Below are positions 12,799 to 17,796 of a stretch of 34,545 nucleotides of DNA, in pieces. A program made the position numbers and the translations under genes. The stretch's first letter is position 1, and every line of letters begins with the position of its first letter. The stretch comes from Sandaracinaceae bacterium (GTDB taxonomy: Bacteria > Myxococcota_A > Polyangia > Polyangiales > Sandaracinaceae), in the NCBI GenBank assembly GCA_044220955.1, contig JBGAQA010000075.1:1-34545 (forward strand). The letters run 5' to 3'. The notes under the pieces are model-generated. The model had not been told where the DNA came from, searched no databases, and saw only the letters and a list, made by a program, of their open reading frames with translations.

Positions 12799-12870
12799 GC
12801 GGGACTAACTCAGTGGTAGAGTGCAACCTTGCCAAGGTTGAAGTCGAGGGTTCGAATCCCTTGTCCCGCT
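12799..12870 (+). tRNA. tRNA-Gly (anticodon GCC), CCA not encoded
   Basis: Acceptor stem GCGGGAC/GTCCCGC plus T discriminator; D arm ACTCAGTGGTAGAGT; anticodon arm CAACC-TTGCCAA-GGTTG; T arm with GGTTCGAATCC. Confidence 0.97.
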
Positions 12871-12873
12871 CTC
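12828..12873 (+). repeat. att direct repeat, left copy (within the intact tRNA)
   Basis: CTTGCCAAGGTTGAAGTCGAGGGTTCGAATCCCTTGTCCCGCTCTC, identical to 17751-17796. Confidence 0.92.
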
Positions 12874-12888
12874 TCGAATCCTCCTAGA

Positions 12889-12927
12889 AAACGGCCCGTT
12901 CCGCGCTCGCAGCCGGACGGGCCGTTT
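12889..12927 (+). terminator. Hairpin terminator downstream of the intact tRNA (inside the islet)
   Basis: AAACGGCCCGT(T)CCG...CGGACGGGCCGTTT. Confidence 0.7.
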
Positions 12928-13069
12928 CGGTTCCGTCGGCGACGATCCCCACCTCGGCGACGTGGCCGAGTGCAACCCGCCCCGGGTTGCATTCAGCGCC
13001 GACGCGGCGCGGGCTCTTGCGGGCCGGCCGACGCGCGTGAGACACCGATCAGGACACGCGGAGGTGAAC

Positions 13070-16000: not shown

Positions 16001-16255
16001 CTCACCGCGGGCGCCGGCCATCGGCTCTACGTCGCCGCGTCGCTCGGCTCCGCCCTCCACGTGGTCGTCGCGCTCGACCGAGACGGCACGCCGCGCGGGC
16101 TCGCAGGCGGACTCGGAGGGCTGACCGACGCGCCGATTCACGCGAGCGCGATCGGGCTCACGCTCGTCGTGACCGGCGTGCGGGGTCCACATCCGATCGG
16201 CTACGAGTGGCGGCAGTTCATCAGCGGCTCGCGGATGATCGAGCGCTGCTTCTGA
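13070..16255 (+). CDS. Large lipoprotein: trypsin-like (S1) serine protease, thrombospondin type-3-like Ca-binding repeats, Cys-rich region, C-terminal propeller-like region
   Basis: GGAGG RBS, lipobox LAGC. Triad motifs [37 protein letters not shown]...[32 protein letters not shown]. Kelch-like LYVIGG. Confidence 0.88.
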   Translation: [1061 protein letters not shown]

Positions 16256-16262
16256 GGGCGCC

Positions 16263-17576
16263 GTGCAACCCGCACGTCCGCTCATCCTGGTCGTCGCGCT
16301 GGCCGCGTGGGTTTCCTGCGACACGCCGGTCGCGCCCGGTGATGGCGGGCCTGATGCAGCCGCTGCGGACGCGGCTCCGGATGTCGGTCCGCACGACGTG
16401 GGACCGTCGGACAGTGGCACGGCCGACCCGGAGTGGGTCTCGATCGCAGTGGGGCTCCCCGACTTCTGCCGGCTCGAGCGGGCAAACCATCCCGAGCGCC
16501 TCGATCAGCTCCGAGTGCGGTTCTCGCCCTGCAGCTCGCGCAGCAACTGTCAGGTCTCGAGCGTGATCGAGAGTGGCGACTGGTATGGCTCCGACGGGAC
16601 GTACGCCGTCGGTACGGTGACGCCTGACGACTGGACCTGGATCTTCGTCTCACCCACGGATGGTGGGCCACCGATCGCAGCGTATCGTGGTGGAACCCGT
16701 GCAGATCCGATGTTCTGCGGACTTGGCTTCGGAGCGATTGGCGGCGGTCGCTTCGCCATGGGGACTTCGTACAGCAGTGGCGGCGTCGAGGGCGCGAGCT
16801 TCTTCGTGGCGCCACTCTCCGATGCGGGTCGCATCGATCGCGCGTTCCTGGATGATCGCACGCATTTCCGTGGCGCGGCCTTCGTGCAGGGCCTCTTCGT
16901 GAGCGACACAGCGCTCGTCGCGTGGGACTCGGCGGGTTTCTTCGTCGACCTCTCCACGGGGAGTTTCATTCGACTCTACGACTCCGCGGGAATGGCCGGA
17001 GCCGTGGAGGACGACCCGAGCGTGGTCGGCAATGCAGTCATGTTCGTCAACTACGAAACGAGCTCGTCGGCAGGCTACATCGTGCTCGGGCACGCAGGCG
17101 TGCCGGGCGGCTATGCCCTGTACCGCGCTCCAACGGGCGTGGACATCGCACGACCCGTCACCGACGGGATCGACGTCGGGTGGGCGCAGTTCCCGCTGGG
17201 CTCGACGACGACCCCGCCCGAGCTGTGGACCGCGCGCTTCGTCGAGGACCCGACCGCCTTCGCTCCTACCTTCGTCCGCGTCATCGACACCGTCTACCAC
17301 CCCCGAGTGGGGGATGGCCTCTGGGTCGACTTCGACGATGGGCCCAACCGCTTCGAGATCATCGACCTGCACGGTGGTGGCCGGAGAACGTATGCGATGC
17401 CGGACGACATCGCGGGCCGACAGCTACTCCACGTCTCGTCGCACCGCGTGCTGTACAACGTCGGCTCGCAGCTCGTGCAGTTCGACCCGAGCCTCTTGCC
17501 CTACGACGATGAGCCCGATGCTGGCACGGACGCGAGCATCGACGATGCAGGGGTCGACGCGGGCGACGCGGGATGA
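16263..17576 (+). CDS. Hypothetical secreted/lipoprotein, beta-rich, with Asp-Ala-Gly linkers at both ends
   Basis: Hydrophobic N-terminus ending WVSC; DGGPDAAAADAAPD linker; C-terminal DAGTDASIDDAGVDAGDAG. Starts 7 nt after the protease stop. Confidence 0.8.
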   Translation: MQPARPLILVVALAAWVSCDTPVAPGDGGPDAAAADAAPDVGPHDVGPSDSGTADPEWVSIAVGLPDFCRLERANHPERLDQLRVRFSPCSSRSNCQVSSVIESGDWYGSDGTYAVGTVTPDDWTWIFVSPTDGGPPIAAYRGGTRADPMFCGLGFGAIGGGRFAMGTSYSSGGVEGASFFVAPLSDAGRIDRAFLDDRTHFRGAAFVQGLFVSDTALVAWDSAGFFVDLSTGSFIRLYDSAGMAGAVEDDPSVVGNAVMFVNYETSSSAGYIVLGHAGVPGGYALYRAPTGVDIARPVTDGIDVGWAQFPLGSTTTPPELWTARFVEDPTAFAPTFVRVIDTVYHPRVGDGLWVDFDDGPNRFEIIDLHGGGRRTYAMPDDIAGRQLLHVSSHRVLYNVGSQLVQFDPSLLPYDDEPDAGTDASIDDAGVDAGDAG

Positions 17577-17750
17577 TCCGCTCGCTCTGCGGCATCACTC
17601 GGGCCCGGGACGCGGGGGTCGCGCACGGGCGAGGATCCCCACCTCGATCCCCACATTCTGACGGGACAGCACGCGTCGGCACGCAGCACCACGAGGCACT
17701 TTCTCCCGAGAATCTCGGGTTTCTCGTTCACGCGCGGGGACTCGATCCCT

Positions 17751-17796
17751 CTTGCCAAGGTTGAAGTCGAGGGTTCGAATCCCTTGTCCCGCTCTC
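17751..17796 (+). repeat. att direct repeat, right copy (displaced 3' half of tRNA-Gly)
   Basis: Identical 46 bp to 12828-12873; lacks the tRNA 5' half. Confidence 0.92.

Follow-up and report, generated by a model that had tools for sequence, protein, structure and literature searches.

How does a segment of DNA that has the ends of an integrated element, and no integrase of its own, come to lie inside a tRNA gene? The question is raised by contig JBGAQA010000075.1 of a Sandaracinaceae bacterium (assembly GCA_044220955.1; 301 contigs, 7.5 Mb, 88% complete), of which the whole stretch of 34,545 nucleotides analysed here is called the window. In this window an islet of 4923 bp, measured core to core and carrying two genes, sits inside the tRNA-Gly(GCC) gene of this myxobacterium. 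Our answer is that the islet is probably a stranded and decayed tyrosine-integrase island that lost its integrase by internal deletion, and that it resembles a cis-mobilizable element (CIME).

The islet, its target and the empty site

We begin with the boundaries of the islet (Table 1). The target is the sole gene of its isoacceptor in the assembly and the sole tRNA gene in the window. An initial annotation of this DNA had described a perfect 46-bp direct repeat at the anticodon loop, and we confirm both copies; the repeat begins one base ahead of the 7-nt loop and ends two bases beyond the tRNA gene. The full repeat occurs twice in the assembly, both times at the islet (E 6e-20). Displaced tRNA fragments in relatives start at the anticodon loop or one base earlier, and from the sequences the crossover overlap would be the 7 bp of the loop itself (12829-12835). 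The 3' half that now completes the tRNA gene would be the copy brought by the element, restoring the tRNA.

The annotation had also placed a terminator after each copy of the repeat. Hairpins do follow both. The one behind attR (z -5.0, reached by 0 of 200 shuffles) has a T5 tail and is 85% identical to the post-tRNA sequence of the congener G003, in which the site is empty. The one behind attL is weaker (z -2.7, reached by 4 of 200 shuffles) and its T tract is poor, and hairpins like it follow tRNA-Gly(GCC) in many relatives. A consensus terminator scan gave a weak call for the first hairpin and missed the second, and a sigma-70 promoter scan returned 0 sites. Between the repeats there are two real open reading frames (ORFs). 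That neither is a recombinase, as annotated, is borne out by Pfam on both ORFs, by a genome-wide six-frame search with PF00589 and by a hidden Markov model (HMM) of seven integrases from the same site in other genomes, none of which finds a recombinase in the islet.

The next question is "does the site exist without the islet?" The annotation had proposed a comparison with relatives, and five congeners serve for it here. The site is empty in two of them (G003, G004), holds a 2-kb two-gene stretch without the repeat in two others (G002, G005), and lies in a rearranged locus in the fifth (G001). The distance from the tRNA gene to the downstream gene for a tetratricopeptide repeat (TPR) protein is 173 bp in G003 and 180 bp in G004, and that from attR to the TPR gene is 189 bp here. 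In these two genomes the DNA behind the tRNA gene is like that behind attR, and unlike that behind attL; G003 has two matching blocks, at 85-89%, and G004 has one, at 85%. It follows that the 4923 bp were inserted here, and that the insertion moved the former 3' half of the tRNA gene aside together with its terminator.

Table 1. Features of the islet and its flanks, in window coordinates
Feature	Position	Strand	Basis
FGGY carbohydrate kinase gene (host, left flank)	10913..12745	+	Pfam FGGY_N/C
tRNA-Gly(GCC), integration target	12799..12871	+	ARAGORN; cloverleaf fold; anticodon 12831-12833
attL identity block, 46 bp	12828..12873	+	exact repeat
GC-rich hairpin after attL, likely weak element-side terminator	12889..12927	+	fold z -2.7
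Single putative left arm-type site, 12-mer identical to right-arm copy, +72 from core	12944..12955	+	motif and position
Palindrome built like the attB core in the tRNA gene	12968..12994	.	pattern match, hairpin z -3.6
Cargo 1, predicted lipoprotein of 1061 aa with trypsin-like (S1) protease domain	13070..16255	+	Pfam, motifs, homologues
Cargo 2, predicted lipoprotein of 437 aa, predicted beta-propeller	16263..17576	+	homologues, model
Putative tandem right arm-type sites, 12-bp period, -118 and -106 from attR core	17634..17657	+	family position
attR identity block, displaced tRNA 3' half	17751..17796	+	exact repeat
Host terminator, directly behind the tRNA gene before insertion	17816..17858	+	fold z -5.0
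Conserved giant TPR protein gene (host, right flank)	17986..25827	+	Pfam TPR

Elements at the same site and the loss of integrase

The insertion is one of many. A pattern search finds a displaced tRNA half at this site in 37 of the 401 genomes of the order, a lower bound since the pattern is strict, and the site is a hotspot (genome G046 counts only in the denominators of our genome surveys, including the 401 of the order and the 32 of the family). The myxophage Mx9 uses a tRNA-Gly site. Elements at the present site encode PF00589 tyrosine integrases oriented towards attL, and together with the empty site in the congeners they support the tyrosine-integrase crossover in the anticodon loop that the annotation had invoked.

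How often is the integrase missing? The same-site integrases were found from BLAST seeds and the HMM, and the tally covers 16 elements, each having its two ends on the same contig; it omits a partly retrieved element of about 57 kb in G066, and the 99-kb island of G014, which it includes, was read at its ends only. The integrase is intact in two elements (G007, 58 kb; G037, 4.2 kb), frameshifted in two (G014, G242) and reduced to a stub in three (G286 and two in G066). In the other nine (the islet, G012, G067, G145, G154, G265, G282, one in G066, and L168) there is none; among the elements of 13 kb or less, nine of 14 are integrase-less. In genomes G145 and G242 the loss of an integrase from this site can be seen directly: the 1.6-kb integrase-less element of the first is a derivative of the 5-kb element with a frameshifted integrase of the second, with which it shares a Fic cargo (95%) and a right arm (89%). 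Since small islets at this site mostly have no integrase, island finders that depend on one will miss them.

We also looked for a helper that could move the islet. The annotation had suggested a search for a tyrosine integrase beside the same 46-mer in this genome; the 46-mer is found at the islet alone, and no integrase of the same clade was found in the assembly, where the best HMM match has E 1e-13 against 1e-145 or less for the cognate seeds. The assembly has five PF00589 matches, one of them full-length (296 aa, contig C199, not at a tRNA gene) and the rest partial, and searches with PF14659, PF00239 and PF02899 give 0, 0 and 1 matches. A search of G011, G045, G012 and G028 with one query protein likewise returned no close integrase of that clade.

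An integrase remnant in the islet was considered and rejected: reading both end spacers in six frames, and tblastn with the seven same-site integrases, gave only noise-level matches, the two best of which (E 0.001 and 0.008) fall on the tRNA repeat itself.

The site also accumulates elements. Tandem arrays of at least three elements occupy the same tRNA gene in G066 (L143, L144) and G026 (L062-L064). Two of the array units in G066 share the integrase stub with which they begin. Just upstream of the 5' end of the tRNA gene there lies a same-clade integrase of nearly full length. In G023 (L048), the stretch directly behind tRNA-Gly and ahead of the terminator consists of a 20-nt unit repeated head to tail about eight times.

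The attachment sites

Elements of this family share a layout at their ends. Each element has a motif of its own, which is repeated with a period of 11-12 bp some 118 bp ahead of the right core and is found again some 70 bp behind the left core; in relatives with an adjacent integrase the left-arm pairs are usually at about +70/+82. Among 29 unbiased attR-type fragments (locus L082, with masked bases, excluded), 14 have a tandem pair within the same right-hand stretch of 35 nt, compared with 157 of 5000 random windows. By analogy with lambda (PMC4880445), and from their position and conservation, these motifs may be integrase arm-type sites.

The islet follows this layout on the right, where its pair stands at the family spacing; the closest arm outside the islet is that of the metagenome element L106, with 82% identity over 55 bp. 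On the left the 12-mer occurs once, and the expected tandem partner is missing; in the 7.5 Mb the 12-mer occurs three times, twice in the islet and once elsewhere. By comparison, of the 25 distinct cores that have an integrase C-terminus behind them, 22 show at least two spaced left-arm copies, among them all nine that a near-full-length integrase abuts. The annotation had described the att repeats as intact; this holds for the perfect cores and the right-arm pair, and fails for the left arm. In G009 and G032 the integrase frame extends across the left-arm copies without reaching the core, so that deletion of the gene can clip the left arm.

The same layout is present on viral contigs. IMG/VR contains 16 matches to the core on such contigs, of which nine are not tRNA genes and are of attP type. 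In these nine, which include two near-duplicate pairs, motif pairs flank one core on both sides as judged by eye, and in eight a same-clade tyrosine integrase adjoins the core.

One further feature of the left spacer was noticed after the fact. A palindrome (12968-12994) is the sole non-tRNA match to the strict core pattern in the genome: its left half-site agrees at 10 of 10 positions and its right half-site at 7 of 10, around a different 7-nt spacer. No strict copy was found at other element loci. As a family feature it was rejected, a relaxed core-like pattern being present in two of 131 core flanks (islet included), about the background. Its first 11 bases, counted from 12970, are found again where cargo 2 has its start codon (16263). 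The idea that the left spacer is a decayed copy of the cargo 2 start was likewise rejected, as 82 of 1000 shuffles reach its local score.

Support from public sequencing runs

There was a concern, whether the second repeat could be an artefact of assembly; the annotation had named lack of read support as what would overturn its proposal. The contigs of public run X1, possibly the source sample, contain all four repeat junctions, at a depth of 9.9 for the islet and 9.7 and 10.4 for its flanks. Pieces of the islet are present in four of the four runs compared, which come from four studies (contig joints with sides of 20-24 letters were treated as noise). The islet and its second repeat are real. 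An artefact of metagenome binning is scarcely credible: the assembly is in 301 contigs and incomplete, and no contig of the runs compared spans the whole repeat, but the junctions stand at flank-like depth, the islet recurs across studies, and a misassembly would not yield the arm layout typical of the family.

Origin of the islet

We turn our attention to the history of the islet. The reading that we favor rests on the empty site, the integrase-bearing relatives at the same site, the attP-type viral contigs with a same-clade integrase, the decay series, the single left-arm copy, the other small tRNA islets and integrase stubs of the host genome, the like depth of islet and flanks in X1, and a search for a same-clade helper that found none. 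An element with attP and an integrase would have recombined with the tRNA gene and restored it, so that the former 3' half came to lie at the right end with its terminator. Its integrase would have lain, as is usual, just inside attL and facing attL, with the last codons over the left arm sites, and a deletion may then have removed the gene and likely also the second left-arm site. The remnant would be inherited vertically, probably supplying an exported protease and a partner lipoprotein. Any further movement would require a related element, either as the source of integrase and excisionase or as a neighbour that integrated beside the remnant and took it along. Most likely the islet is an ordinary leftover of an integrating element.

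Several points weigh against this history. There is no mismatch in the core repeat to this day, and the spacing of the right arm is that of the family. The islet holds no trace of an integrase, and its deletion is deduced from relatives only. The tally of 16 elements is biased to short ones, which assemble better. A loose test that counts left-arm copies is positive in 108 of 300 random windows, and the weight of the left arm rests on position and motif identity. The assembly, at 88% completeness, does not contain the full XerC/XerD genes that relatives show, and a helper could therefore be unassembled. In run X1 the segment 17656-17780 stands at double depth (21 against 10) and is entered by a variant contig that lacks base 17655, a hint that the sample contains another element whose right arm is nearly the same. 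Contigs moreover break at the 46-bp repeat and read alike for attL plus attR and for attB plus attP.

The annotation had left two options, a minimal cassette moved in trans and a reduced island that kept its cis sites, and the decay series, the apparently clipped left arm and a search of this genome that found no same-clade helper favor the second. Could the islet nevertheless be a maintained non-autonomous cassette, excised and re-integrated by the integrase of a temperate phage or a co-resident island with the same tRNA target? The perfect core, the right-arm pair at family spacing and the doubled right-arm depth in X1 would fit, as would the viral contigs with a matching att layout and the fact that integrase-less elements form the majority of those of 13 kb or less. 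Two of these (G012, G265) retain arm pairs at both ends, an integrase in G026 lies over left-arm sites that match the islet 12-mer at 11 of 12 bases, and the cargo family recurs beside tRNA att sites (tRNA-Gly in G008, and a cargo 2 paralogue at tRNA-Ser). Against this stand the single left-arm copy of the islet, four integrase-less elements without a left-arm pair (G067, G145, G154, G282), searches that found no helper in the host genome or in four other genomes with arm-bearing ends, and the absence of a second copy of the islet ends from the host genome; broken-integrase intermediates moreover account for the pattern without a new mechanism. We regard such a cassette as unlikely. Its extension, in which myxobacteria keep minimal integrase-free tRNA-Gly cassettes that borrow phage integrase to shuffle surface protease/lipoprotein modules, with the attB-like palindrome as a second core for cargo swaps, is more doubtful still.

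It is also conceivable that no integrase was involved, and that the repeat arose when the tRNA gene region captured a paralogous gene pair of the same genome, through homologous recombination or by duplicating locally. The host genome does contain four more such pairs, none beside a tRNA gene, and the GC content at third codon positions (GC3) of the cargo is modestly below the genome median. The repeat starts, however, at the anticodon loop just as in integrase-bearing relatives, and the paralogues (27-52% identical) are too distant for a recent internal copy. Repeats of arm type at family positions on both sides largely refute this explanation, to which we give very little credence. Loss of the integrase from an integrated island remains the most likely history.

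The cargo genes

What does the islet carry? In cargo 1, PF00089 is matched at 22.4 bits (cut-off 20.6) on residues 72-91 only, and the motifs of a His-Asp-Ser triad stand in order (His90/Asp164/Ser287), as in a predicted protease. The remainder comprises TSP3-like Asp-rich repeats, a Cys-rich middle and a C-terminal kelch-like propeller. Among 37 matches to cargo 1, nine are long homologues at 27-33% identity. The model has low confidence (predicted local distance difference test, pLDDT, 42) and matches kelch propellers, the C-terminal propeller alone being usable. Cargo 2 matches no Pfam family; it has six homologues at 42-62% identity in which Cys19 is invariant, and its model (pLDDT 75) matches propellers in Foldseek with template modelling (TM) scores of 0.3-0.5. 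The best ESM Atlas scores of 0.86 and 0.81 are leads only. GC3 is 0.87 for cargo 1 and 0.80 for cargo 2, compared with a genome median of 0.91. The pair likely encodes, as far as sequence can tell, an exported protease with a partner lipoprotein.

The further gene pairs lie on contigs C111, C44, C8 and C267. The cargo 2 family is present in 13 of the 32 genomes of the family, and the pair is found behind tRNA-Gly in G008 as well (L049). At tRNA-Ser, an att fragment has the closest cargo 2 paralogue (52%) at 1 kb on its inner side. By its homologues, the predicted protease/propeller-lipoprotein pair is a multi-copy, patchily distributed and unnamed myxobacterial module; no shared flanking motif was seen by eye among the paralogues. 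Some copies of cargo 1 are broken, one host paralogue by a frameshift and the G008 copy by an internal stop. In run X2, eight of the 11 listed differences in cargo 1 are protein-changing, one of them at the catalytic His, compared with three among the 13 of the kinase on the left flank (Fisher p 0.04), with contigs at a depth of 3-5, 13 table rows outside the count and errors possible. This is a weak sign that cargo 1 is under relaxed selection.

Flanking genes and other islets of the host genome

The flanks are host DNA. The TPR protein (2613 aa) is 73-87% identical in the five congeners and always in this neighbourhood in the genus. The true start of the FGGY kinase is probably near 11116; the kinase lies upstream of the tRNA gene in four of the five congeners, there with one or two genes intervening. 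One of these genes, at the congener loci L036-L039, we take to be fumarase-like from its N-terminal sequence. It, and the additional gene that is sometimes present, are absent between kinase and tRNA gene here (12745-12799). At 1233-2825 the window also encodes two Cys-rich repeat proteins with DUF7107 and MopE-like metal-binding motifs, typical of myxobacterial secreted proteins.

Elsewhere in the host genome, three more small tRNA islets are bounded on one contig. At tRNA-Arg (TCT) there is a 4.8-kb islet with an integrase stub and lipoprotein-like cargo (C241:18706-23611), and the islets at tRNA-Leu (TAA; 2.6 kb, C239:29062-31797) and tRNA-Leu (CAG; 7.6 kb, C268:37946-45674) have no integrase match. 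The fragment at tRNA-Ser (TGA) that adjoins the closest cargo 2 paralogue is at C296:21794-24236. Integrase C-terminal stubs are present at tRNA-Arg, -Asp and -Phe; judged by sequence, these other tRNA sites show the same decay pattern as the islet.

A literature search found no paper on this tRNA-Gly site in myxobacteria. The present survey maps the hotspot and its att grammar (a 7-bp anticodon-loop overlap, and arm pairs of 12-bp period at about -118/+70) across the myxobacterial order. The candidate integrases that it names are possible integration tools, or could serve in tests of excision in trans; those of G026 (L062) and G100 (L077) have the arm sites nearest to the islet's own.

Comparison with known systems

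Mx8 and Mx9 are temperate elements of myxobacteria in which one integrase brings about integration at a specific site, as in the inferred ancestor of the islet (PMC6070905, PMC10281127). In Mx8 attP lies within int, whereas the integrase frame in G009 and G032 crosses the left arm sites and ends before the core. With the heterobivalent att sites of lambda the family shares a core flanked on both sides by distant direct-repeat arm-type sites (PMC4880445). Excision of lambda needs two Int bridges on the arm sites of attL (PMC4880445), which for the islet can serve as analogy only. In 'grounded' prophages, loss of the recombinase or of att DNA strands the element (PMC6379469), as proposed here. 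The islet differs from both in having no phage gene; its arm number and spacing are unlike those of lambda, and arm binding is suggested here by position and conservation.

Among the islands collected by Islander, the anticodon-centred class 'A' is the commonest (2083 of 3919; PMC4383910). The islet resembles it in its anticodon-loop crossover and in the common orientation of tRNA gene and displaced 3' fragment. Islander, however, requires an integrase gene inside the island (PMC4383910), and the islet, having none, would be filtered out.

The closest likeness is to CIMEs, which were defined for Streptococcus loci of ICEs (integrative and conjugative elements) and IMEs (integrative and mobilizable elements), with a classical size of 1.2-13 kb (PMC5704250, PMC7563491). 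The islet falls within this range, keeps attL and attR with perfect 46-bp cores and the right-arm pair, carries cargo without genes for integration or excision, and occupies a tRNA site at which tandem arrays form (G026, G066). It differs in that its left arm appears clipped to one copy, in its myxobacterial host, and in that viral contigs and plain integrase islands are among its autonomous relatives. Neither of the two ORFs that fill the islet matches a relaxase, coupling protein or type IV secretion system family in Pfam. We call the islet CIME-like, and not a CIME, because the likeness is one of structure, whereas a CIME by definition descends from an ICE or IME by deletion and is transferred by accretion and cis-mobilisation. 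Decay to such a state is an already known mechanism, and the significance of one more example is modest; the CIME state itself is a named and common class (PMC5704250, PMC7563491), to which the tRNA-Gly islet of this myxobacterium is a structural counterpart.

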